This document shows, piece by piece, positions 12,662 through 44,110 of a stretch of 64,000 bases of DNA. This DNA comes from Pseudomonadales bacterium (lineage in GTDB: Bacteria; Pseudomonadota; Gammaproteobacteria; Pseudomonadales; JAHRWD01), in NCBI GenBank assembly GCA_016763075.1, contig JAESUM010000068.1, positions 13,051-77,050 of the forward strand, read 5' to 3'. The notes below the pieces were generated by a model, which was given only the letters and a program-made list of their open reading frames with translations, searched no databases and was not told the DNA's origin. Position 1 is the first letter of the stretch. Each line of letters begins with the position of its first letter. The translations under genes were made by a program, and so were the position numbers.

Positions 12662-13651
12662 GTGCAACAAACCTCTCCAGATACTCTACAAAAGCAAATA
12701 TACGACGTCGCCGCTCAAGAACTCGAAGAGCTAAACCGTTGCATCGTTTCTGAACTGCATTCCGATGTTGGCATGGTCGAAGAGATCGGTCATTACATTG
12801 TAAAAGCCGGCGGCAAACGTTTGCGGCCACTGCTTGCGCTACTTTCAGCCAAGTGCTGCGGGTATCAGGGCGATATGCATATCAAATTGGCCGCCATCAT
12901 CGAATTTTTGCACACCGCTACGCTGCTTCACGACGACGTCGTCGATGTCTCTGACTTACGCCGTGGCCACGAAACCGTAAACGCCCGCTGGGGCAATGCA
13001 CCGAGCGTCTTGGTAGGCGATTTCATTTACACCCGCTCCTTCCAGCTAATGGTGAGTTTGGGTGACATGCAAATCATGAAAATTCTCGCTAAAGCATCCA
13101 ATTTGTTAGCCGAAGGCGAGGTCATGCAATTGGCCAGAGCGCGAGACGCCTCTACCGATGAAGCTCAATATTTTGAAGTGATTCGGCGTAAAACCGGCAC
13201 TCTTTTTGAGGCTGCCTCACATACTGCGGCGGTTCTTGCAGATGCCAGCGCACAACAACAAAATGCACTGCAACAGTTCGGCGCGCATTTGGGTTTGGCA
13301 TATCAGTTAGTAGATGATGTATTGGATTACGACGGCGACGAACAACAAATGGGGAAATCACTGGGGGATGATCTGGCAGAAGGCAAACCCACTTTGCCGT
13401 TGATCTACACCATGAAACACGGCAACGCTGAAGATGCCAAACTGGTCGAAAATGCCATCAACGACGGCAGCATTAACGACCTTAAACAAATCATCGCTGC
13501 GATAAACCGCTCCGGCGGTCTTGCGTATACTCGCAAGCAAGCATTCGAGCAACGCGACAAAGCCATTGAATGCATGACTGAATTTGATGACTCAGTCTAT
13601 AAAAGCGCAATGATCAACCTTGCTGAATTTTCAGTTTCGCGAGCTTACTAA
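12662..13651 (+). CDS. ispB: octaprenyl-diphosphate synthase
   Basis: 329 aa. Two Asp-rich motifs (LLHDDVVD and QLVDDVLD) of trans-polyprenyl synthases. Length and N-terminus resemble IspB. Confidence 0.85.
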   Translation: MQQTSPDTLQKQIYDVAAQELEELNRCIVSELHSDVGMVEEIGHYIVKAGGKRLRPLLALLSAKCCGYQGDMHIKLAAIIEFLHTATLLHDDVVDVSDLRRGHETVNARWGNAPSVLVGDFIYTRSFQLMVSLGDMQIMKILAKASNLLAEGEVMQLARARDASTDEAQYFEVIRRKTGTLFEAASHTAAVLADASAQQQNALQQFGAHLGLAYQLVDDVLDYDGDEQQMGKSLGDDLAEGKPTLPLIYTMKHGNAEDAKLVENAINDGSINDLKQIIAAINRSGGLAYTRKQAFEQRDKAIECMTEFDDSVYKSAMINLAEFSVSRAY

Positions 13652-13666
13652 AAAACTATCGGGAAA

Positions 13667-14326
13667 CTAGTCCGAAGCTAATAGCTTTTTCATTCCCGCT
13701 TCGAAATCTTTTTTACCTCCATAGGAAGGGTGCCGGATATAAACCACCTCTTCGTCTGGAAATATATTTTCCAGCGCAGCAACGCCTTTTCGCCCAACCC
13801 CTGCCATGGTAGTTGGACAAAATATTTCTATAAGCTCCTTTAGATAACTTGCACCTTCTTGCACTTCTTTTTTAATAGGCGCTCGGTTTTTATTCTTGCT
13901 CCCTTTGGGGAAAGGATGAAAGGGGAATGCGTTCCAGAATAACGGGTATATTTCCGAGTCATTTAATGCAGCCCACACCAAAGACGCACTATTTTCCGAA
14001 ATCACCTGCACCAGAATAATCTTACGATCAATAATTTGAAATATTCTATGTTCTTTCTGTCGTATTAACGCGCCGCTAGAAAATGGTATGCCTGTAAGAC
14101 GAGCACCTTTGTACCCTGGTGCTTCGCCTATCAACATTTTTACAGGCTTTTTATTCAACCCCTTAACTTCGTATCTTCCCTGATTCACTATATACAATAA
14201 ATATATTTTCAGATTTTCACAAAGACTTGGATTTCTATAAGGGTTGAAGACAGTTGAGCTGTTTCTTCTTTCTGAAAGACGCGATATAAACTGATCAATA
14301 CTATCTTGCTGATTAATGCCAACCAT
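13667..14326 (-). CDS. uracil-DNA-glycosylase-superfamily protein of unknown specificity
   Basis: 219 aa. UDG motif A GEAPGYKGARLTGIPF and motif B IRHPSYGG. Only two Cys, so it lacks the four-Cys Fe-S ligand set of classical family 4. The start lies 3 nt after the HK stop. AT-rich. Confidence 0.65.
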   Translation of the reverse strand: MVGINQQDSIDQFISRLSERRNSSTVFNPYRNPSLCENLKIYLLYIVNQGRYEVKGLNKKPVKMLIGEAPGYKGARLTGIPFSSGALIRQKEHRIFQIIDRKIILVQVISENSASLVWAALNDSEIYPLFWNAFPFHPFPKGSKNKNRAPIKKEVQEGASYLKELIEIFCPTTMAGVGRKGVAALENIFPDEEVVYIRHPSYGGKKDFEAGMKKLLASD

Positions 14327-14329
14327 ATT

Positions 14330-15007
14330 CTATGGCAAGAGTATTGAAAACATACCGCCGCCTTCATAATTTTCTAATCGCATTGATCCTCTAGCCTCAC
14401 CTTTTGCATGCTCAGCAGCAATACGCGATGCGAAAAATAAACCTAATTGAGTGCTGCCGGCAGAAAAATTAAAACCCTCTTTTAGGCTTTCTAAATTAGA
14501 TAACATTTTCTGTGGGTAACCCAAACCATCATCCAGCACCGAAACAACCAGCTCATCACCAACGGCGCCAGCTCTCAATATTACTTTATTATTTGCGTAT
14601 TTTACGGCGTTAATAAGAACGTTACATATAACATCTGAAATAAGCTGTTCGTCAAAAATCCAGCTTAACGATTCATCACATTCGATACTCACGTCTATAC
14701 CGCTTGCCGTGAATAATATGTCATTGTTAATTATTTGATCTTGCAGAAGATCAAATACATAACATTCTTGGTAATTTAGAACAAGCTGGTCTTGGTCAAT
14801 TCTATAAATACCCAGTAAGTGAACAAGATCATTATTAATTCGAGCCGCTTCTGCATGCAACAAAGCAAGCTGTGATTTTGACTCGCTATCTTTTGCTAAC
14901 TCCGATTGATCGAGCTGCTCTACAGTAGATAACAACATTCCAACCGAGTTCTTCATATCATGTACGGCAGATGCTAGCAATAGAGAAAAATCTAATGTTG
15001 ATTTCAT
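14330..15007 (-). CDS. sensor-less histidine kinase core (HisKA + HATPase)
   Basis: 225 aa. H-box SAVHDMKNSVG, N-box NVLINAVKYANN, DDGLGYP (G1), GSTQLGLFFA (G2). No TM or sensor domain. Confidence 0.75.
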   Translation of the reverse strand: MKSTLDFSLLLASAVHDMKNSVGMLLSTVEQLDQSELAKDSESKSQLALLHAEAARINNDLVHLLGIYRIDQDQLVLNYQECYVFDLLQDQIINNDILFTASGIDVSIECDESLSWIFDEQLISDVICNVLINAVKYANNKVILRAGAVGDELVVSVLDDGLGYPQKMLSNLESLKEGFNFSAGSTQLGLFFASRIAAEHAKGEARGSMRLENYEGGGMFSILLP

Positions 15008-15026
15008 CGTTAAATAGTCTCTTGAG

Positions 15027-16670
15027 TTAGAATCGATTAATTTGGCTTTCTAATTTTTTGTAACGTCCGTACAAACGATTATCTTCAGCGATATGATCAA
15101 TTCTTTTCAAACTAATTTTGCAACGTTCAATTTCATCAGCTTCCATTCGTTTGTCTTCTGAACTTTTAACTAATGCAAAAACCATATTGATATTTAGCGC
15201 AATGTTATTTGGAAATAGCACCAATCCACGAGAAAAGAAATCCGCCGCTTCGGTATACTGTTTTTGATCAAACAGGGTCTTACCTTCTTTGTTTAACGTG
15301 ATCGCGTTCTGCTTGCCTTCTTTTGTTAGAGGCTCATCAGAAAGTTTATCTAATTGCTGAGCGATTTTTTCGTCACAGCCGTCTCGGCTGGCGATCTCTC
15401 GAAGGATGCCTTGAGCCTCATCATTATCCCCAACAGCCAATAATGTTTTAGCCATTTCCAACATTACCTCCGGCGAAGTTTCAGCACCCTCAATACTGTC
15501 CATCTTTTTGTACAGTACGGCTGCGCTATCCATCATGCTTTTTGCTTTGTCTGCTTGATCACTACTTGCGTAAACTTGCGACTCAACCAATTTTGACTGA
15601 AGCGTTACTTGTGGATTATTCGGATACCTTCGCTCGACCTTTTTAAGTACCGTTTGCGCTTCAATCATTTGTTTCTTATCTTTGACCTCGCTTGAATCTA
15701 TTAGCACCGATAACGAACGTGCATAACCAAGATAATTTTCTGGTTCTTCGTAACAGGAGTGGGGGCTTAGTTTTACAATCGACTTGTGTGCTTTAACCGC
15801 GGTTTCTAAATCGCCGCAGGTTTCGCTTAAGTCCGCGTAAGCCTTTTGCCTTAGAATTGCGTGGGGCGATATTTGTAACGCTTGCTCCAAGGTTTCTTGC
15901 GCTTCTTTATTTTCTTGTTTTTTCTGTAAAATTTCTGCAAGACAATCATAGATTTCCATGCAGTTACAGCCAGCGCTAATCAAACGTCTAAATATTTTCT
16001 CGGACGACTCCAAATCATCCATTAACAAAAGTACTTTACCTAACCCGATGGTTGCCCATTCAATCGGCCGGTCTGTGATCACTTTTTTATACAGCTTGCA
16101 AGCATGTGCGTACTGAGCCGTACTTACATACAAACCTGCTAGCTTTCTAATTAGCAGTGTTTTGTATTTGCTGCCGCCTTGCAATTGCTCAATGCAAAGC
16201 TTGATGCCGGTTTCATATTCTTTTTTATCGATGGCATCATTGATATCCCGTATCGACTCTTTTTCTAGCATGATTCGGTCAAGACGGCTGCGTAACGCAT
16301 TTTGCGTAAACGGCTTGGTTATGTATCCATCGGGCTGGTATTCAAGTGCGCTGAACACCATGTCGCGGGTCGCCTCCGCTGTGATCATGATGTACATGCT
16401 GGTATTTTTCAGAAGATTCCTATACCGCAATTCTTCCAATATTTGCTGGCCGTTTTTGCTGATATCGCCCAGGTTATAATCTGCAAAAATAATGTCGTAT
16501 TCGTTAAATTCACATTTGCTTATAGCTTCGTCACCATTTGAGGCGGTATCGACAGATTCGGCTCCAAACAGCATGACGGCGCGGCGGATGAATCCGCGCA
16601 TCTCTGGGAAATCGTCTATCACCAGGCATTTCTTGCTGGCGTAGATCTTGATGATGTCTATTTGACGCAT
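15027..16670 (-). CDS. response regulator: receiver domain + TPR-like helical-repeat output
   Basis: 547 aa. REC residues are intact (VIDD, FADYNLGD, IMITAE, YITKPF). About 400 aa of TPR-like repeats follow. No DNA-binding or enzymatic domain recognised. Confidence 0.7.
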   Translation of the reverse strand: MRQIDIIKIYASKKCLVIDDFPEMRGFIRRAVMLFGAESVDTASNGDEAISKCEFNEYDIIFADYNLGDISKNGQQILEELRYRNLLKNTSMYIMITAEATRDMVFSALEYQPDGYITKPFTQNALRSRLDRIMLEKESIRDINDAIDKKEYETGIKLCIEQLQGGSKYKTLLIRKLAGLYVSTAQYAHACKLYKKVITDRPIEWATIGLGKVLLLMDDLESSEKIFRRLISAGCNCMEIYDCLAEILQKKQENKEAQETLEQALQISPHAILRQKAYADLSETCGDLETAVKAHKSIVKLSPHSCYEEPENYLGYARSLSVLIDSSEVKDKKQMIEAQTVLKKVERRYPNNPQVTLQSKLVESQVYASSDQADKAKSMMDSAAVLYKKMDSIEGAETSPEVMLEMAKTLLAVGDNDEAQGILREIASRDGCDEKIAQQLDKLSDEPLTKEGKQNAITLNKEGKTLFDQKQYTEAADFFSRGLVLFPNNIALNINMVFALVKSSEDKRMEADEIERCKISLKRIDHIAEDNRLYGRYKKLESQINRF

Positions 16671-16883
16671 AAATACTTGTACTAGTTAAGTTCCATTTTT
16701 ACCCGCAGGCACACGCCTTTAATAGTAGTTGGTTTTGCTTTATTCACCTGGTAATTTACATCGAAGACATAGGCTTTTTACATTGCTGTGGTGCCACCAC
16801 ACCACAGCCGTTAACGCCTTTGGTAGCGGCTAATTCGGCCTCATATCCTACCCCTTTACTCACATATGTAACTCGCCCTAATT

Positions 16884-16899
16884 TGGCGCTAAATATGCG
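16884..16899 (+). promoter_or_regulatory. candidate sigma-54 (-24/-12) promoter upstream of gcvT
   Basis: TGGCGC-TAAAT-ATGCG versus consensus TGGCAC-N5-TTGCW. GG and GC have the correct 12-nt register. Lies about 60 nt upstream of the gcvT ATG. Pattern match only. Confidence 0.3.
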
Positions 16900-16959
16900 T
16901 GAATATCACAGCCAAAAAGGCTAAAATGCGCCGCATAAATATCAGGCATAATTAGGCAT

Positions 16960-18042
16960 ATGGGCAACAAAACTATTTTATACACCCAGCACGTAGAAGC
17001 TGGCGGTAAAATCGTCGATTTCGGCGGTTGGGATATGCCTTTGCATTACGGATCTCAGATCGAAGAACACAAACAAGTGCGCGATTCTGCCGGGATGTTT
17101 GATGTATCGCACATGACCATTGTCGATATCGAAGGCAGCGATGCCAAAACGTATCTTCAACGGCTATTGGCCAACGATGTTAATCGTTTAAGCTCCCCCG
17201 GGCGCGCCCTGTACACCGCTATGCTAAACGAGCAAGGCGGTATTATTGACGACCTGATTGTCTACCTCACTGAGACTGGCTACCGGCTGGTAGTGAACTG
17301 CGGCACCCGCGAAAAAGACCTAGCCTGGATGGAGCAGCAAAGCCCTGGCTTCAATGTGAATATTATTGAGCGCCCGGAGCTCGCAATCATTGCGGTTCAA
17401 GGGCCCGACTCACTGCGCAAGCTCATCAAAGTGCTCGACCCACAAAGAGCTGCTTTAGTAGCGCGGCTCAAGACTTTTCAGGGGCTGCCCGTCGCTGGCT
17501 GGTTTATTGGCCGCACTGGCTATACTGGCGAAGATGGCGTCGAGATCATTTTGCCCCAGGAGCAAGCCGTTGAATTGTGGCAAGCATTGGTAGAAGGAGG
17601 CGTGGCTCCCGCCGGTTTAGGTGCCAGAGACACATTAAGACTTGAAGCCGGGTTCAACTTGTATGGCTCCGACATGGACGAGTCGATCACACCCTTTGAA
17701 GCCAATATGGCCTGGACCATTTCATGGACCAATGAAACCCGTGATTTTATCGGTCGCGGCACGCTACAAACCATTCGTGCCGACCAATCCCAACAATTCA
17801 AATTGGTAGGGTTAGTTATGACTGAGCGCGGCGTTTTGCGCGGCCATCAAAAGGTCATTACAGCGCACGGTGAAGGCGAGATCACCAGCGGAACCTTTTC
17901 TCCGACGCTGGGCTATTCTATTGCCTTTGCTAGAGTCCCGGTAGACGCTGAAGAAAATTGCCAGGTAGAGATACGTAACAAGCTGATTGAGGTTAAAATG
18001 GTCAAATTGCCATTTGTACGTCACGGCAAAAAAGTATTTTAG
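16960..18042 (+). CDS. gcvT: glycine cleavage system aminomethyltransferase T
   Basis: 360 aa. The N-terminus ...[31 protein letters not shown] is typical of GcvT. Confidence 0.9.
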
Positions 18043-21682: not shown

Positions 21683-22918
21683 ATGACCGAAGCCACTTTG
21701 CGCCTTAAGAAAAACGGCGAACGCCGAATCCGCCGCGGTCACCCCTGGGTGTACAGCAACGAAATCGATATCGCTAAAACCCCCTTAAAAGGGCTGACAG
21801 CAGGTATTCAAGCCACCATCGAAGCCTATGATGGCAAGCCACTCGGTAGCGCCTGCATCAACCCCGGCGCGCTGATTCGCGGGCGGCTTTACAGCCGCAG
21901 TGGCGGAACATTGCTAGATATCAGACTGATTTCGCGATTACTAAAGAAAGCGCTTTTACTGCGTGAGAAGCTATTCTCGGCTCCCTACTACCGGCTTTGT
22001 TACGGCGACGGCGATGGCCTTTCTGGGCTAGTGATAGACCGTTACGGCGATGTGCTGGTGGTCCAAATTTCGACTGCCGGAATGGAAGCGCTCAAGCAAC
22101 CCATCATCGATGTATTGCAGAAAATACTGTCACCCAAAACCATTTTGCTAAAAAACGACAGCGGCCAACGGGTGCTGGAAGGGTTAGAAAAATACAGCGA
22201 AGTAGTGGTGGGTACGCTTGATGAACTCACCCCCCTTGAAGAAAACGGCGTACGTTTTCTTGCGCCGCTGGCCAAGGGCCAAAAAACCGGCTGGTTTTAC
22301 GACCACCGCTTTAACCGCGCCCAGCTCAGCCGTTACGTAAACGGCATGCGCGTACTCGACTTATACAGCTACGTCGGCGGTTGGGGCATTCAAGCTGCCA
22401 CCTTTGGAGCCAGCGAAGTGGTGATGGTAGACAGCTCAACCCTGGCATTAGAAGTGGCCGGTGAAAATGCCCGTTTGAATGAAGTACAGGACAAATGCAA
22501 AACCGTTCATGCAGAAGTATTGGAAGCGCTAAAACAGTTTCGTGCCGACGGCGAGAAATTCGACATGGTAATTCTCGATCCACCTGCGTTAATCAAACGT
22601 AAAAAAGACCAGCGCAAAGGCGAAGAGCATTACCACAACCTCAATCAGCAAGCCGTACAGCTGTTAAACCCCAATGGCTTTTTGGTTTCTGGCTCCTGCT
22701 CAATGAACCTTTCCGAAGAGCGCCTTATCGATATTCTCGGCACCGCCGCCCATCGCAACGGCCGCACTATTCAAATTTTAGAAAAAGGTGGCTTAGGGGC
22801 CGATCACCCACTGAGCCCAGCGATACCTGAAATGGATTATTTGAAATCGGTGTTTTGTTACATGACTAAGAATCATATTCAGCATCAAACAACACAAGAA
22901 AGTAATACTGATTCGTAA
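21683..22918 (+). CDS. rlmI: 23S rRNA m5C1962 methyltransferase RlmI-like (PUA + class I SAM MTase)
   Basis: 411 aa. The N-terminus LKKNGERRIRRGHPWVYSNEI resembles RlmI. SAM-binding motif VLDLYSYVGGWG. Confidence 0.75.
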   Translation: MTEATLRLKKNGERRIRRGHPWVYSNEIDIAKTPLKGLTAGIQATIEAYDGKPLGSACINPGALIRGRLYSRSGGTLLDIRLISRLLKKALLLREKLFSAPYYRLCYGDGDGLSGLVIDRYGDVLVVQISTAGMEALKQPIIDVLQKILSPKTILLKNDSGQRVLEGLEKYSEVVVGTLDELTPLEENGVRFLAPLAKGQKTGWFYDHRFNRAQLSRYVNGMRVLDLYSYVGGWGIQAATFGASEVVMVDSSTLALEVAGENARLNEVQDKCKTVHAEVLEALKQFRADGEKFDMVILDPPALIKRKKDQRKGEEHYHNLNQQAVQLLNPNGFLVSGSCSMNLSEERLIDILGTAAHRNGRTIQILEKGGLGADHPLSPAIPEMDYLKSVFCYMTKNHIQHQTTQESNTDS

Positions 22919-22979
22919 TCCAAGCGCTGGCGGGCTTACCCACCGCCATGATTTCAAAAGGCACACATTGTGCTAAATT

Positions 22980-23258
22980 ATGGCGGTGGGTCATCACGCA
23001 TGGAATGCAAAAAAGAATGCCAAGCTAATCGCGGCATCTCTTTTGAACGTATTATTTACCATATAGAAAGGGATGGCCTGTTAGATGTCATAGGCCATCC
23101 CAACCCTGCAAAATACCCCAATCAAAAATGTTCATCGTAAACAGTAGCCAATACGCTTATTTGGTTCCTTTTGTTGAGACAGACACAGAAATTTTTTAAA
23201 AACAATCATTCCCCGCAGGAAAGCCACCAAAAAATATCTTGAGGTGAATAAGTCATGA
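22980..23258 (+). pseudogene. BrnT/DUF497-like toxin gene inactivated by three -1 frameshifts
   Basis: Four frame segments: MAVGHHAWNAKKNAKLI / RGISFERIIYHIERDGLLDVIGHPNPAKYPNQK / MFIVNSSQYAYLVPFVETDTEIF / LKTIIPRRKATKKYLEVNKS*. The final TGA overlaps the antitoxin ATG. Lesions lie near 23029, in the A5 run 23124-28 and in the T6 run 23192-97. Confidence 0.6.
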
Positions 23259-23533
23259 GTAATCAGCTAACCAAAAAAGAAGAGCAAGAACTTCTTGAGT
23301 CCTATGAAAAAGGTGAATGGGTATCTGTTTCAAAGCCATCGGATATTGCCCGATATAAAACCGCCGCAAAGAATACTTTTAAAAAAGACAAACGCGTCAA
23401 TATTCGTATATCAGAACTGGATCTTGAGTTATTGCAGGAGCGGGCACTGATTGAAGGGCTGCCTTATCAAACCCTAATGTCGAGTGTGCTGCATAAATAT
23501 GTTACTGGGCGACTGACTGATAAAGGCATATAA
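23255..23533 (+). CDS. BrnA-like / CopG ribbon-helix-helix antitoxin
   Basis: 92 aa, intact. ...KDKRVNIRISELDLELLQERALIEGLPYQTLMSSVLHKYVTGRL is typical of RHH antitoxins paired with BrnT-type toxins. Confidence 0.65.
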   Translation: MSNQLTKKEEQELLESYEKGEWVSVSKPSDIARYKTAAKNTFKKDKRVNIRISELDLELLQERALIEGLPYQTLMSSVLHKYVTGRLTDKGI

Positions 23534-23569
23534 ATTTACAATGTTTTCTTTTCTTAAACAGTAGATACC

Positions 23570-23965
23570 ATGAATTTACAGGAACTTACTCCATCTGAAA
23601 AAATCCTTCTGGCCGATAAGCTATGGGGTAGCGTGGCTTCTGATGATAAATTATTCCCATTAACTAAAGACCAGAAAGCAGTGCTTGATGCTCACCTCGC
23701 AAGCTACTCTAGTAATCCTCAAGAAGGCGATTCATGGATTCAAATCATAAGAGATGAAGAAAAACAAATGTTAAGAATAATTCTACTCATACTAAATTTG
23801 TCCGCATTAGCTTGGATCGGTTACGTAACCCAAAATGACGGAATAAAAAACTTGAACGGCGGTTTGCTGCTAGTTGGTATATGCACTTTCCTTTTCGGTA
23901 ATGTTTATTACATCTATAGGCATGCAGCGTCTAAAAAAATAGACCTTGGGTTGGCTTATACCTAG
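23570..23965 (+). CDS. addiction-module antitoxin-like N-terminal domain fused to a two-TM C-terminal tail
   Basis: 131 aa. Residues 1-60 (LTPSEKILLADKLWGSV...LTKDQKAVLDAHLASYSSNPQEGDSW) resemble the 'putative addiction module component' antitoxin family. Residues about 68-125 form two hydrophobic helices (LRIILLILNLSALAWIGYV, GGLLLVGICTFLFGNVYYIY). Confidence 0.5.
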   Translation: MNLQELTPSEKILLADKLWGSVASDDKLFPLTKDQKAVLDAHLASYSSNPQEGDSWIQIIRDEEKQMLRIILLILNLSALAWIGYVTQNDGIKNLNGGLLLVGICTFLFGNVYYIYRHAASKKIDLGLAYT

Positions 23966-23997
23966 AGAGAAAAGCCATGGAGGAACAAAATAAAATT

Positions 23998-24023
23998 TAA
24001 GAGCTTCAATCATAAAGCTCTTA
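23998..24023 (-). terminator. hairpin terminator downstream of the HAD-IB gene
   Basis: TAAGAGCTT-caatcata-AAGCTCTTA, a 9-bp perfect stem. On the minus strand it is followed by AAATTTTATTTT. Confidence 0.5.
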
Positions 24024-40110: not shown

Positions 40111-40931
40111 TAGAGAATCAACCAATAGGGATATTTGATTCCGGGGTCGGCGGGCTTTCGATACTCGAGTCTATCCGCCAAACCCTGCCTAACGAACAAC
40201 TGATCTACGTGGCAGACGCCGCCAACGCACCCTACGGCAAACAAAGCGATGCACAGATCGTAGATCATTCATTACGAGTCTGCCGTTTTTTAATTGCCCA
40301 AAATGTAAAAGCAATTGTAGTGGCCTGCAACACCGCCACCACCATTGCCATTAGCGCCATCCGCGCCACTACCAACATTCCCGTAATAGGCGTAGAACCA
40401 GCCATAAAACCCGCCGTAGAACAAAGCAAAACTGGAGTGGTGGGTGTACTCGCCACCGCCGGCACCCTGCAAAGCACCCAGTTTGAAAAGCTAAGTAACC
40501 TTTATGGTAAAAACATAGAAGGTCGCGAAATAGAATTAATAACCCAGCCATGCAACGGACTAGTCGAAAGAGTAGAAGCGGGTGACATCGACGGTCCTAT
40601 CGTTACCCAATTGCTAGAGCAACATCTGCAACCACTGTTAAAACGAAACGTCGACACATTGGTACTGGGCTGTACCCACTATCCATTTTTAATTGAAACC
40701 ATTTCGCAAATTACCGGTTCCGCCGTAGCCATAATTCACCCCGGTGAAGCCGTTGCCCGGCAGCTTGAAAAACGTATTGGGCAAGAATCCCAACTGCGCG
40801 TTAAAACCGATCAACCTTCAATTCAGTTTTTCTCCAGTGAAGTTACTGAGCGTTATCGGTTTAGGTTTGAAGCTCTTCTTAAGCAATCAATCACACTTCA
40901 GTCCATCAACTTGCCGCTTCACCAATCTTAA
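40107..40931 (+). CDS. murI: glutamate racemase
   Basis: 274 aa. IGIFDSGVGGLS, VVACNTAT and LGCTHYP catalytic-Cys motifs. The TTG start overlaps the upstream stop (TTGA). Confidence 0.9.
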   Translation: MIENQPIGIFDSGVGGLSILESIRQTLPNEQLIYVADAANAPYGKQSDAQIVDHSLRVCRFLIAQNVKAIVVACNTATTIAISAIRATTNIPVIGVEPAIKPAVEQSKTGVVGVLATAGTLQSTQFEKLSNLYGKNIEGREIELITQPCNGLVERVEAGDIDGPIVTQLLEQHLQPLLKRNVDTLVLGCTHYPFLIETISQITGSAVAIIHPGEAVARQLEKRIGQESQLRVKTDQPSIQFFSSEVTERYRFRFEALLKQSITLQSINLPLHQS

Positions 40932-40953
40932 AAATGAATATATCTTATATGGT

Positions 40954-41235
40954 ATGTGGGGAATATATGAACATAAGCGTGTCACTAAGAGTCTGAAATC
41001 CGCCTCCATTGATGTACTAAAAAAGTACGAAAAATGGAAAGATATCGTGGCTATTTCTGGCCCGCAAGGCTTATTAAGAATCAAAGGATTCCGAGACGAA
41101 TTACTCTCAGGTGAGTGGAAAGATTATCGTTCCTCACGCCTAAACCTACAATATCGCGTCATCTACAAAGTAGAAACCGACAAAATTATGGTTCATGTGG
41201 AAAACGTTACTCCCGACGATTATCCGATAAAATAA
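40954..41235 (+). CDS. RelE/StbE-superfamily (HigB-like) mRNA-interferase toxin
   Basis: 93 aa from ATG 40954. ...LSGEWKDYRSSRLNLQYRVIYKVETDKIMVHVENVTPDDY resembles RelE-fold toxins that precede an HTH antitoxin (toxin-first HigBA order). AT-rich. Confidence 0.6.
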   Translation: MWGIYEHKRVTKSLKSASIDVLKKYEKWKDIVAISGPQGLLRIKGFRDELLSGEWKDYRSSRLNLQYRVIYKVETDKIMVHVENVTPDDYPIK

Positions 41236-41236
41236 T

Positions 41237-41505
41237 ATGAAAAATTACAAAAAGGCAAAAAGGCAAAAAGGACAGCCGTAGTTTCCGTTGGTGAATCTGT
41301 AAAACTTATCAGGGAACTTCAAGCACTCAGCCAAAATGAGTTAGCAAAATTATCAGGCATTCCCCAATCCACTATCTCTGCCATCGAAAACGACAGAATT
41401 CAGTTAGGCGTTGAACGGGCCAAAGTGCTGGCCAGGGCATTAAATTGCCACCCTGCGGTACTGGTATTTCCCACCTGGGATATTGAACAGGAATCAGCGG
41501 CATAG
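41237..41505 (+). pseudogene. XRE-family HTH antitoxin (HigA-like), start separated from the HTH body by a frameshift inside an 8-bp tandem repeat
   Basis: The ATG 41237 frame stops at TAG 41279-81 after 14 codons. The HTH frame (...VVSVGESVKLIRELQALSQNELAKLSGIPQSTISAIENDRIQLGVERAKVLARAL... to TAG 41503-05) has no ATG/GTG/TTG ahead of the HTH. Confidence 0.65.
41248..41271 (+). repeat. perfect tandem repeat CAAAAAGG x3
   Basis: Units at 41248-55, 41256-63 and 41264-71, read directly from the sequence. Confidence 0.95.
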
Positions 41506-41619
41506 ATAGATCCATATTTTGTGCCTTAAATCACAATACGTGGAAAATCGGTTCCGCTTGTTCACACGGCTAGAGCTAACAAATAACTGAGACTATAGAA
41601 GCAATAATTAATTGGACCA

Positions 41620-42264
41620 ATGAAAACTCAAGTTTTTTCGCCCTTATCTTATTTTTAGCCGCTCTATTTTTGGGTTGGGTAAGTGGCGCGTTTAAAGCAC
41701 TAAGGCGCAAGCCTGACTTAAAAGTAGAAGTCCTACCGGGGTCAACATTTTGTGCTTTGTTTGAAACCCTCGCAACAAGGAATGGGCGACACACGCATAG
41801 GACTGCCGTTGCACTTTATCTATCCATAACAAATGTTGGTGGCGCGCCGACTGATATCAAAACTATTCATGTAGGTTATAACTCGAAAAGTCACTTCATT
41901 CCATTTCGCTGGTTCTGACTAAAAGAGCTTACAGTTTCAAAATCCGACTTCATTATGAAGCTTGGAGAAGACCGAAAGGTTTACCCGTTCCTTGTTCAGA
42001 GAAATCAGCATACTGACAATCAAATTGATACTTATTTACTTGAAGGGAAAAAATGTAAGGGTAGTTTGTTTCGAACAAGAAGAATCTTGGGGCAACTATT
42101 TACCCAAGACCCGCGATAATAAAATGAAGATTAAAATCAAAGTGTTGGATATGCACGGCAACCGTTATTTTTATACGTCGGTAATTAATAAGGTAACCAT
42201 TGATGCCGCTAAAGAAGTTAGTGCGAAGTTTGGTGAGACAAGAGAGTCACTGAGTAAAGCCTAA
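41620..42264 (+). pseudogene. membrane-anchored protein of unknown function, disrupted three times
   Basis: ATG 41620 (MKTQVF) shifts -1 in the T6 run 41633-38 into FALILFLAALFLGWVSGAF... (track ORF 41670-41918). In-frame TGA at 41916-18. A +1 shift in the A6 run 42048-53 leads into ...NVRVVCFEQEESWGNYLP...SLSKA (track ORF 41962-42264). Confidence 0.5.
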
Positions 42265-42389
42265 AGCCCTAACAAATCAATCACCAAATTCAGCAACCCT
42301 TTCCTCAAGCACAGCCTTTACCGCTTACTTCTGATTTCCTTTTCCCATTACGTTGCCTTGTATTTCCGACTCCATCAATAATCCTGCTT

Positions 42390-43114
42390 CTACCGATAAA
42401 TAATTTGCGGCACTAAATAACCGTTTATTACCCCGAATTGCATCGGGGTTTTTGTGGCTATTTCTTTAGCGGTTTCAAATGTGGCGGCAAGTGGGTTTTC
42501 ACTTATTCGTGTTATAAATCCATATTCCAATGCTTGTTGCGCGGTAAATATTCTACCTGTGTAGGCCAGTTCACTCACGATATCTTCACGGGCTAAATGG
42601 CGCATTAATTGTGTGCCTGCCATATCGGGCACGATACCCCATTTTATTTCCATAATTGAAAAGCGGGGCTCTGGTGCGGCGTAACGTATATCAGCCCGTA
42701 GGGCGATTTGAAAACCACTACCATAAGCAACGCCATGCACTGCTGCGATAACCGGCATGGGTAAATTGCGCCACATCCACACGGCATACTGAACGTAGTT
42801 GGCTATTCCGTGGGTTCTTGTTACTAGCGGCTCGCTGCGTTGTGGAGGTTTGTTGGCAGCGCTTTCTTGTAGGTTTTCTTCGGAATTATTATCAGCAGCC
42901 ATGTTAGAAAAACTGCTCATATCTAACCCTGCGCAAAATGCCGGCCAGTGCCAGATAACACCGCTACGCGCACTTCAGGCACATTACGCAGTCGCTCGCC
43001 AACTTCGGTTATTGCAGCGAACATTTCACCATCGAGCGCGTTCATTTTTTTGCTACGTACAAAGCGTACATCTACAATACCGTCGGTAATGCTTAGGATG
43101 ATTCGACCCTCTAT
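42390..43114 (-). pseudogene. enoyl-CoA hydratase/isomerase (crotonase) family gene with a frameshift and no canonical start
   Basis: The upstream segment IEGRIILSITDGIVDVRFVRSKKMNALDGEMF...VAVLSGTGRHF ends at TAG. One extra T (plus-strand A run 42935-38) would give HFCAGLDMSSF..., continuing into track ORF 42390-42920 (...VIAAVHGVAYGSGFQIAL). The codon at the homology start is ATA (43114-12), behind AAGGGAGAA. Confidence 0.75.
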
Positions 43115-43325
43115 GTTGTTCTCCCTTTATTTTGTTTTCAGTTTTTATGTTGATTGGTAATAAAATACCATTACCTAAATTACCAGACATCTAATTATTC
43201 ATCGGCTCCGTTTGAATATTAAACATTACATAACAGGTGTAATTTGTTATACCTCGGCCTCCAAAAATAGCCTGCATTAATATGCCGGCGAAGCATACAT
43301 AACATCAACCTTACGGAATAAAAAC

Positions 43326-44027
43326 ATGGAACGCATTTTGAATTTAAGAACACTCGCATTAACTGTAATTGTTGCTGTACTGGTAGGTTGTGCAGCCCCT
43401 CAAATATCAATGAGTACGCAAGCTCAAAGCAACATTGAGCAAATTGAGGGTGTGCTAACGATCCCTCAAAGCTCTTTAGATGTTACGGTTCAAGCTACCA
43501 ACCCAGGCAACAGTGGTTTACTTGGTGCACTCATTTTTTCAGCGATAGATTCTTCTCGAAAATCAAGCGCGGAGGAATCTGCTGTTCCAATGCTGGCCAC
43601 ACTTCGCGATTATGATTTCCGCGAAGTCATGTTGAAGGCTTCGACTGATGCATTCAGTAAAATTCAAAACGTTAAAGTAGCACTTCCATTGCAGCTTGAT
43701 AAAATAGGTAGCGAGTCTTCTTCACGAATCACGCTGGATCAGTCAACCGCTAGCGCTGTGCTTTTTTGCCATATTGGCTACCGGTATGAATCCGATGCGC
43801 TTATTGTTACTGCGAATGCGGTAATGTACCCCAAAGCGGCTTCGCTACAGCAGTACCGAAAATCACCCAGTGAATCTAACCCGCTTGCAGACGGCAATGT
43901 GATTTACCGCAAAACATTCACGTACACACGACAGAATGTCTCTTCGAATACGATGAAAGACAGCCTAAACCAGGCTGCTATTAGTCTTTCAAAGCAGATC
44001 GCGGCGGATATTAACCACGGCCGCTAA
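43326..44027 (+). CDS. lipoprotein of unknown function
   Basis: 233 aa. Signal peptide with lipobox LVG|C (MERILNLRTLALTVIVAVLVGCAAPQ). Confidence 0.6.
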   Translation: MERILNLRTLALTVIVAVLVGCAAPQISMSTQAQSNIEQIEGVLTIPQSSLDVTVQATNPGNSGLLGALIFSAIDSSRKSSAEESAVPMLATLRDYDFREVMLKASTDAFSKIQNVKVALPLQLDKIGSESSSRITLDQSTASAVLFCHIGYRYESDALIVTANAVMYPKAASLQQYRKSPSESNPLADGNVIYRKTFTYTRQNVSSNTMKDSLNQAAISLSKQIAADINHGR

Positions 44028-44058
44028 TACTAGCTTTAGGTGTTGTAAGACCATTGCC

Positions 44059-44110
44059 GGATACTTCGTGTTGAGCCTTTGTTACACGGCTGTACCAACA
44101 CGAAGCATCC
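44059..44110 (+). terminator. long hairpin terminator between the lipoprotein gene and cysQ
   Basis: GGATACTTCGTGTTG ... CAACACGAAGCATCC. 15-bp stem with one mismatch and a 22-nt loop, followed by GCAATTTTA. Confidence 0.55.

Follow-up and report, generated by a model that had tools for sequence, protein, structure and literature searches.

A conserved response regulator-histidine kinase pair and an adjoining UDG-superfamily gene in a Pseudomonadales bacterium: probably two independent functional units

The analyzed stretch of DNA (64,000 nucleotides, hereafter the window) carries at positions 13667-16670 three adjoining minus-strand genes, distinguished on the basis of the ORF listing and the sequence itself, which encode a response regulator (RR), a histidine kinase (HK) and a UDG-superfamily protein (UDG-like). 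The block and its surroundings consist of the following elements:

12662-13651, plus strand: ispB, encoding an IspB-type polyprenyl synthase; flank on the UDG-like side
13652-13666, no strand: gap of 15 bp between the convergent stops of UDG-like and ispB, read from the sequence
13667-14326, minus strand: UDG-like, UDG-superfamily protein of 219 aa, free of an Fe-S site (PF03167, E 3e-9)
14327-14329, minus strand: spacer of 3 nt from the end of HK to the ATG of UDG-like, read from the sequence
14330-15007, minus strand: HK, minimal cytoplasmic histidine kinase of 225 aa (HATPase_c, E 1.6e-7; family invariants; AF2; Foldseek)
15008-15026, minus strand: spacer of 19 nt from the end of RR to the ATG of HK, read from the sequence
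15027-16670, minus strand: RR, REC+TPR response regulator of 547 aa (ORF; Pfam Response_reg, E 1.4e-18; TPR_14, TPR_19, TPR_2 and TPR_12)
16671-16959, no strand: divergent intergenic region of 289 bp between the RR and gcvT starts, delimited by the ORF bounds
16960-18042, plus strand: gcvT; flank on the RR side

An earlier inspection of the letters alone (the sequence-only reading) had placed three minus-strand genes with spacers of 19 and 3 nt between ispB and gcvT and had regarded their packing as operon-like; the ORFs lie exactly so, and both spacers were confirmed from the sequence. A consensus scan revealed neither promoter-like nor terminator-like sites on the minus strand within the block, which, together with the short spacers, is compatible with, though not proof of, a single transcription unit. 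In the window, the 3-nt spacer and the lack of a detectable internal promoter or terminator suggest co-transcription of HK and UDG-like, and co-regulation of UDG-like with the RR-HK pair is possible in this lineage. The promoter of the unit is presumed to lie in the 289-bp region between RR and gcvT. No match to Rfam families (a glycine riboswitch or any other RNA) was obtained for this region or for the block (12-19 kb, E ≤ 0.1), and the 15-bp gap between UDG-like and ispB contains no terminator-like hairpin. In three related loci (L001, L002 and L089) a 530-aa gene with a Glu_synthase domain (PF01645) is placed between RR and gcvT; it is absent from the window, where no remnant was detected by tblastn.

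At 0.407, as against 0.483 for the window, the computed G+C content ranks the block among the lowest 1% of 3-kb windows and bears out the earlier hand counts, according to which the block is AT-richer than its flanks. The G+C content at third codon positions (GC3) is 0.36 for UDG-like, 0.32 for HK and 0.44 for RR, with a mean of 0.50 and a standard deviation of 0.06 for 59 ORFs. Such a composition could be read as a trace of foreign origin, i.e., the block would be a horizontally acquired islet. This reading draws on the block being the lowest-GC 3-kb stretch of the window, on GC3 values up to three standard deviations under the mean, and on the gene content beside the block, which differs by the presence of the Glu_synthase-domain gene in the relatives. 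We nevertheless consider it improbable. L001, L002 and L089 show this dip too, at the corresponding site of the chromosome, and it is common to relatives diverged by 24-40% in protein sequence. Moreover, conserved residues show third-position identities of 0.39-0.53 in the block genes and of 0.42-0.51 in ispB and gcvT; the block and its flanks are thus saturated to the same degree at synonymous sites, and a recent horizontal transfer was rejected as an explanation of the dip. Equal saturation implies that any acquisition predates the clade, in which case amelioration should have erased the compositional signal. The RR-HK pair also lies 1-7.5 GC points under its flanks in all six loci of distant genomes (named below). 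No tRNA or tmRNA gene was found in the whole window, and no mobility genes at the block; only short AT-rich chance repeats were present, none of which brackets it. Given that relatives share the dip and that synonymous saturation does not differ from that of ispB and gcvT, the low G+C content is a long-maintained property of the block genes and not the mark of a recent transfer. The suggestion of the sequence-only reading that the genes sit inside a horizontally acquired islet is therefore not supported for a recent event; an ancient acquisition of the block is conceivable.

The first gene of the block encodes a protein with an N-terminal receiver domain followed by approximately 400 aa of TPR repeats:

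16281-16625, minus strand: REC domain, residues 16-130 (Pfam; BLASTP against CheY, 30% identity, E 1e-18)
15186-16154, minus strand: TPR-repeat region, approximately residues 173-495, the sole output domain (Pfam and NCBIfam TPR matches)

The phospho-acceptor set of RR, with the residue roles as listed in PMC5847659, is complete: in the BLASTP alignment D19, D20, D64, T97 and K119 correspond to D12, D13, D57, T87 and K109 of CheY. Both this alignment and the Pfam and NCBIfam matches agree with the earlier description of a regulator with all phospho-acceptor residues and only a TPR-like output. The homologues of RR (n = 335), named by NCBI as "tetratricopeptide repeat-containing response regulator", have a constant length of approximately 545-560 aa.

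HK is composed of a DHp hairpin and a CA domain and nothing else: it lacks TM, HAMP, PAS or any other input domain, and its phospho-acceptor histidine lies only 16 residues from the N-terminus. This residue (H16; codon 14960-14962), located in the sequence VHDMKNS on a predicted helix (residues 7-33), is invariant in 19 family members. The match to Pfam HisKA is weak (E 0.057), while HATPase_c is recognized with 32.2 bits (cut-off 26.4). The residues invariant in the family, H16, N133, D159-x-G161-x-G163 and L188-G189-L190, represent the H, N, G1 and G2 boxes. The AF2 model (pLDDT 84) consists of two helices (residues 7-33 and 41-71) and an alpha/beta domain (residues 79-224), and in Foldseek searches it matched the DHp-CA cores of HK853, ZraS, CusS and DivL over its full length. 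The domain matches, the model and the structural search all point to the bare HisKA-HATPase core without a sensor that had been recognized by eye.

The third protein passes the PF03167 model with 37.4 bits (cut-off 24.3), and its AF2 model (pLDDT 92) predicts the UDG fold with high confidence. All its significant fold matches in the PDB (Foldseek) are UDGs, although its identity to any solved UDG is only 14-20%. Two motifs were distinguished:

14114-14128, minus strand: motif A, GEAPG (residues 67-71), followed by the Phe-stacking motif TGIPF (F82); G67, E68, A69, G71 and F82 invariant
13715-13732, minus strand: motif B, HPSYGG (residues 199-204); R198, H199, P200, S201, G203, G204 and K205 invariant

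Invariance was judged over 21 diverse family members, in all of which the active-site residues E68 (motif A), F82 (stacking), N132 (WN motif) and H199 (motif B) are retained. UDG-like contains two cysteines (C36 and C170) and its relatives one to four, with no quartet conserved in the family; this confirms the earlier observation that the UDG motifs are present in a protein with too few cysteines for the Fe-S site of family 4. The family comprises at least 689 homologues and 413 species-genome loci, as well as 317 clusters at 50% identity with E ≤ 1e-30. An exact search with the UDG-like protein of the window retrieved no contig encoding it. Most of the 150 best-scoring relatives listed are approximately 200-215 aa long (a few are longer, up to 354 aa) and are thus too short to contain a fused signaling domain. 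Nothing specific to this subfamily was found in the literature searched. UDG-like represents a distinct, broadly distributed, mostly stand-alone and uncharacterized family, in which the active-site residues of glycosylases are intact.

The gene neighborhoods were surveyed from two sides: (i) the best 80 of 413 genome loci of UDG-like relatives, and (ii) the best 80 of at least 570 metagenomic HK loci, of which 72 had room upstream and 64 had room downstream. In 56 of the 72 loci, HK is directly preceded by a same-strand gene for a TPR-type RR, and 68 of the 80 loci contain the RR cluster. The remaining 16 of the 72, lacking RR in a single-sequence search, may reflect the limited sensitivity of this search or be genuine orphans, such as P0177. 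The order RR-HK also occurs in all six distant genomes (Teredinibacter, Marinobacter, a Cellvibrionaceae MAG, Oceanicoccus, Dasania and Hahella), in which the genes following HK differ and UDG-like is never among them. The RR-HK pair adjoins only two UDG-like relatives in the best 80 of the 413 genome loci, namely the closest ones, L001 and L002, both Pseudomonadales MAGs, and UDG-like follows HK in only one of the 64 metagenomic loci with room downstream, again that of a close relative. Since RR precedes HK in most loci and in every distant genome, while UDG-like is rarely found there, the conserved unit is the two-gene RR-HK pair.

A conserved third gene after HK was considered and rejected, as no such gene recurs across the HK loci. 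cmoA and cmoB, found upstream in approximately 20 HK loci, and an M16 peptidase gene, found downstream in 10, represent lineage-level synteny. UDG-like has no conserved neighbor above the genus level in the genome loci surveyed. The RR-to-HK spacer is short throughout, with a median of 4 nt in 60 related loci (19 nt in the window), whereas the HK-to-UDG spacer varies, from 3 nt in the window to 8, 32, 36 and 82 nt in relatives. At least five contigs have nevertheless retained the adjacency of HK and UDG-like while their proteins diverged by approximately 40%.

These results bear on the proposal, put forward in the sequence-only reading, that a phosphorelay and a glycosylase are co-transcribed as a module for signal-gated DNA-base surveillance or defense. 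If this were true, the coupling of a phosphorelay to a DNA glycosylase would represent a novel mode of control over base excision repair. In its strongest form, the three genes would be a true module of the Pseudomonadales clade, in which the TPR-type RR binds or controls UDG-like. The operon-like packing in the window would agree with this, as would the retention of the trio in L001, L002, L089 and L090 and the nature of TPR domains, which are protein-binding modules. We regard such a module as very unlikely, as the comparative data take away most of the support for the idea. The four loci share with the window the whole gene order gcvPHT ... RR-HK-UDG / ispB / MBL / CysZ, and the trio occurs only where this entire surrounding order is also conserved, so its synteny within the close clade is explained by vertical inheritance. 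It is absent from 78 of the 80 UDG loci (the best 80 of 413), from 63 of the 64 HK loci and from all six distant genomes. The drift of the HK-UDG spacer up to 82 nt and the length of most of the 150 best-scoring UDG-like relatives listed, which leaves no room for a fused signaling domain, also speak against it. The co-occurrence across taxa that the sequence-only reading had proposed to look for is thus confined to close relatives, and the lack of conserved synteny, which it had named as grounds for abandoning the module, is what was found outside one narrow clade. The suggested defense function fares no better, since none of the three proteins matches any PADLOC-DB defense model at E ≤ 0.01. 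A variant in which UDG-like was captured into the RR-HK operon in one Pseudomonadales lineage, becoming a client of the TPR-type RR with base excision switched by phosphorylation, appears more doubtful still.

The block is probably composed of two independent functional units, adjacent by chance in one lineage, and the confinement of the trio to one narrow clade favors the chance neighborhood that the sequence-only reading had kept as its fallback. The adjacency of HK and UDG-like is inherited local gene order and not conserved functional coupling. The first unit is the RR-HK pair, predicted from the encoded proteins to be a conserved, uncharacterized cytoplasmic two-component system. HK would autophosphorylate on H16 and pass the phosphoryl group to D64 of RR, whose phosphorylation would change which protein partners are bound by the TPR superhelix; since RR has no DNA-binding or enzymatic output, we infer that it acts via such partner binding. 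Because HK has no sensor, its input must be delivered by another protein, and the TPR domain may well be this partner. The second unit, UDG-like, would be a stand-alone base-excision glycosylase that excises uracil or a similar product of base deamination. In the Pseudomonadales clade of the window, its gene directly follows the pair, whose promoter probably also serves it by read-through. The RR-HK pair is a conserved, unstudied pair of marine Gammaproteobacteria (nothing specific on an experimental study of this family was found in the literature searched) and offers a clean system for examining how a sensor-less kinase obtains its input, while the UDG-like clade is sizeable and fits none of the described UDG families.

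Among known systems, RR resembles the response regulators with protein-interaction output (REC + TPR-like) of Galperin's census (PMC5847659), with which it shares a complete REC domain fused to TPR repeats and the lack of a DNA-binding or enzymatic output, so that signaling is expected to proceed via protein-protein interaction. Unlike this general class, RR belongs to one orthologous family of constant length, which occurs in marine Gammaproteobacteria and is paired with its own mini-kinase. HK retains the H, N, G1 and G2 boxes of the HK853, CusS, ZraS and DivL cores, to which it is structurally similar over its full length; however, those structures are cores cut from larger sensor kinases, whereas in HK the 225-aa core is the entire natural protein.

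Comparison of UDG-like with the described UDG families gave a mixed picture. With the family 4 enzymes UDGa of Sulfolobus tokodaii (4zbx) and TM0511 of Thermotoga (1vk2/1l9g) it shares motif A (GEAPG) and the G-x-PF stacking motif, and residues 89-150 of 4zbx align to its N-R-x-P-x3-E-I segment. In family 4 UDGs, four conserved cysteines ligate a 4Fe-4S cluster; UDG-like lacks this quartet. The motifs of this family are GE(A/G)PG (motif A) and HPS(S/A)(L/V)(L/V)R (motif B) (PMC10359453), and UDG-like, with HPSYGGK, shares only the HPS of the latter. It reaches 26 bits with the family 4 NCBIfam model TIGR00758 (cut-off 125.3), over residues 146-187 only, and the structures of family 4 and UdgX proteins match it with a TM score of only approximately 0.5. 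UdgX is characterized by motif A GEQPG and the R-loop KRRIH (PMC10359453); UDG-like has GEAPG instead, and KRRIH is absent from its sequence.

The distance from any solved UDG, the score far under the family 4 cut-off, a motif B that departs from that of every described family, and the example of UdgX, which indicates that relatives of family 4 can have non-canonical chemistry (PMC10359453), might mean that UDG-like is not a uracil glycosylase but a DNA-binding protein devoid of activity, or an enzyme whose substrate is a different modified base or some other compound. We consider this unlikely, given the invariance of the motif A glutamate, stacking phenylalanine, WN-motif asparagine and motif B histidine in the 21 diverse members, the confidently predicted UDG fold and the lack of the UdgX R-loop.

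The best structural matches of the putative glycosylase are SMUG1 and SMUG2 (family 3; 1oe4, 5h93, 9gk0 and 5h0j), which occupy the top 15 Foldseek PDB positions (TM score 0.62-0.66, E 1e-7), ahead of family 4 and UdgX, and which, like UDG-like, have no Fe-S cluster. Pedobacter SMUG2 (5h0j) aligns to the N-terminal half of UDG-like, including the NP(Y/F) and TGIPF segments. Identity to the SMUG1 and SMUG2 proteins is 16-20%, and the PDB profile E-values against SMUG1 (0.03-0.26) are not significant. Motif A of SMUG1 is GMNPG and that of 5h0j is GINPG, in contrast to the GEAPG of UDG-like, with glutamate in the second position. UDG-like may represent an undescribed Fe-S-free UDG family, in which motif A of family 4 is placed on a SMUG-like scaffold.

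The block comprises three minus-strand genes coding for a REC-TPR response regulator (RR), a mini histidine kinase (HK) and a UDG-like protein, and is arranged as follows:

12662-13651, plus strand, polyprenyl synthase of the IspB type, flanking the block
13667-14326, minus strand, UDG-like ORF (219 aa)
14330-15007, minus strand, HK ORF (225 aa)
15027-16670, minus strand, RR ORF (547 aa)
16960-18042, plus strand, gcvT, flanking the block

The RR stop is separated by 19 nt from the HK ATG, and the HK stop by 3 nt from the UDG-like ATG, while 15 bp separate the UDG-like stop from that of the convergent ispB. The three ORFs, their positions and their spacers were as described in the sequence-only reading in every particular, and its domain calls were all recovered with Pfam and NCBIfam: REC (E 1.4e-18) and many TPR families in RR, HATPase_c (E 1.6e-7) and a weak HisKA match in HK, and UDG (PF03167, E 3e-9) in the third protein. 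A consensus scan of the minus strand inside the block identified no promoter-like or terminator-like site.

The proposal that the three genes form a module was examined through synteny from both sides. From the UDG-like side, the best 80 of the 413 species genomes with a relative were analyzed, with up to 8 kb fetched per side (less at contig ends). A REC-TPR gene and a short HK gene precede the UDG-like gene in only two of these loci, L001 and L002, which are Pseudomonadales MAGs carrying its closest relatives (58-60% identity). The pair is absent from the other 78, which span Neptuniibacter, Arenicella, Cycloclasticus, Marinicella, Halomonas, Arcobacter and Sulfurimonas, as well as Latescibacterota, Bacteroidota and archaeal MAGs; among the best 80 loci, the UDG-like gene has no neighbor conserved past genus level. 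From the HK side (metagenome scan, 80 loci), an RR-family ORF was found in 68 of the 80 loci, and a TPR regulator directly precedes HK in the same orientation in 56 of the 72 with room for it. A UDG-like gene occurs in one of the 64 HK loci having at least 700 bp downstream, that of a close relative (L090; 66% identity). Six distant genomes, named or with long contigs (Teredinibacter purpureus, Marinobacter sp. 1Y8, a Cellvibrionaceae MAG, Oceanicoccus sagamiensis, Dasania marina and Hahella sp.), all have RR followed by HK, and the gene after HK differs each time (M16 peptidase, LysE, another REC protein, 4HBT thioesterases, SpoU methylase, GST). The commonest neighbors of the pair are cmoA-/cmoB-like tRNA-modification methyltransferase genes, located divergently upstream of RR in about 20 loci (within the metagenome set L090-L169, plus L081 and L084); this adjacency is probably lineage-level synteny.

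In the loci surveyed, linkage of the UDG-like gene with the two-component pair is therefore missing outside one clade. That clade (L001, L002, L089 and L090) keeps the full order gcvP-H-T, Glu_synthase-domain gene, RR-HK-UDG, ispB, MBL, CysZ; because all of the surrounding gene order is shared, its trio is inherited synteny that says little about function. RR and HK are closely spaced throughout (median 4 nt), and the HK-UDG spacer drifts (3, 8, 32, 36 and 82 nt). The three-gene "module" does not hold up as a real system. The Glu_synthase-domain (PF01645) gene encodes 530 aa between gcvT and RR (L001 3870-5465, L002 3826-5418, L089 4251-5843); since the window has only a 289-bp gap at this site (16671-16959) and tblastn detected no remnant, the gene was cleanly lost or gained in a lineage-specific manner.

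The hand counts that had suggested an AT-rich block agree with the computed profile: its G+C content is 0.407 vs. 0.483 for the window, in the lowest 1% of 3-kb windows. The four ORFs of lowest G+C, out of the 59 in the window, include all three genes, and the GC3 of HK (0.32) is about 3 sd under the mean (0.50). Acquisition as an islet had been put forward for this block. The dip, centered on HK (0.38), recurs in L001, L002 and L089, and the RR-HK pair of each of the six distant genomes lies 1-7.5 GC points under its surroundings. Third-codon-position identity at conserved residues, window vs. relatives, is 0.39-0.53 for the block genes and 0.42-0.51 for ispB and gcvT, so synonymous sites are near saturation to an equal degree. 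The block has diverged in step with the adjacent housekeeping genes, and its low GC3 has been kept in every lineage. Recent transfer as the cause of the low G+C was rejected on these grounds, and a search for a tRNA, a bracketing repeat or a mobility gene revealed none; an ancient acquisition is conceivable. We infer that these genes have retained their low G+C over time, e.g., because codon selection is weak where expression is poor. Overall, the description given by the sequence-only reading and its fallback of a chance neighborhood hold, but its signal-gated repair or defence module and its acquired islet are not supported.

Two other low-GC stretches were distinguished in the window, 22700-24000 (0.37-0.42), probably a small toxin-antitoxin islet, and 40900-44100, of which 40931-42390 lacks an ORF of at least 120 aa:

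23570-23965, plus strand, 131-aa ORF matching addiction-module antitoxin family PF09720
42390-42920, enoyl-CoA hydratase fragment (176 aa)

The latter covers only positions 85-195 of the 251-position profile, and is thus possibly a decayed gene.

RR residues D19, D20, D64, T97 and K119 align to D12, D13, D57, T87 and K109 of CheY, the positions defining a phosphorylatable receiver (PMC5847659); beyond REC, it contains TPR repeats alone (about residues 173-495). The HK family (225-256 aa) has invariant H16 in VHDMKNS, N133, D159-x-G161-x-G163 and L188-G189-L190. The HK AlphaFold model (pLDDT 84) comprises a two-helix hairpin (7-33, 41-71) and an alpha/beta domain (79-224), and is a DHp-CA core over its whole length; the earlier description of a bare core with no sensor is thus correct, and applies to the entire family. 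One member (P0177, 38% identical; L085, 6001-6687) stands without an adjacent TPR regulator, so orphans exist. In Marinobacter sp. 1Y8 (L083, 770-7612), the strand of the pair also encodes a 1171-aa PAS-HisKA-HATPase-REC hybrid kinase just upstream of it and a 249-aa REC protein just downstream, which hints that in some genomes the pair belongs to a longer phosphorelay, a possible source of the absent sensory input.

Judging from conserved residues and folds, HK would be a soluble kinase that dimerises via the DHp hairpin and, after autophosphorylation at H16, hands the phosphoryl group on to D64 of RR, which would alter the set of proteins that the TPR domain binds. As HK has no input domain, its signal would have to arrive via a protein partner, most economically the TPR domain of RR. 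Using its motif A Glu, stacking Phe, Asn and motif B His, the UDG-like protein is predicted to act as a monofunctional glycosylase on uracil or a related deaminated base, which it would flip out and remove. In the window lineage, its gene is probably transcribed by read-through from the pair, which may cause incidental co-expression. Nothing that we found points to a shared function, a defence role has no backing from PADLOC, and it seems very improbable that the glycosylase was captured in this one lineage as a client of the TPR regulator.

The UDG-like family (317 clusters at 50% identity with E<=1e-30; nearly all of the best-scoring 150 relatives about 200-215 aa) occurs in Gammaproteobacteria, Campylobacterota, Latescibacterota, Acidobacteriota, Bacteroidota and two archaeal MAGs (L063 Methanophagales, L071 Methanobacterium). 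Motif A GEAPG, the Phe of TGIPF, the Asn of WN and the His of RHPSYGGK are invariant in 21 diverse members. These show no conserved Cys quartet, and hence no family 4 Fe-S site, as had been noted for the window protein. The model of the window protein (pLDDT 92) best matches SMUG1 and SMUG2 (TM 0.62-0.66), then family 4 and UdgX (TM about 0.5), with an identity of 14-20% throughout. In sequence profiles, the C-terminal half resembles family 4 enzyme 4zbx (E 1e-5), and the N-terminal half SMUG2 5h0j. The window protein carries a 9-residue insertion (YEVKGLNKK, about residues 53-61), found in none of 20 aligned relatives and coinciding with the sole low-confidence model segment (pLDDT <50 at residues 53-55). 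Literature searches gave no paper on either the RR-HK or the UDG-like family.

DHp-CA cores are textbook, and a natural protein made of such a core alone is uncommon; HK superposes over its full length on those of HK853, ZraS, CusS and DivL. Each of the three proteins is of an already known kind. RR belongs to the REC-TPR combinations, protein-interaction response regulators that form a recognised, though unstudied, class (PMC5847659). The UDG-like protein shares with family 4 the motif A form GE(A/G)PG (PMC10359453), but differs in motif B and the Fe-S site and scores far under the NCBIfam cut-off (26 vs. 125 bits); it lacks the characters of UdgX, and resembles SMUG by its fold though not by its motif A. 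The protein is therefore filed solely under the UDG superfamily, and its family, combining a family 4 motif A with a SMUG-like fold, a SMUG2-like N-terminal half, the invariant RHPSYGGK motif B and no Fe-S site, fits none of the described UDG families and is best described as a distinct, uncharacterised clade with an apparently intact active site.
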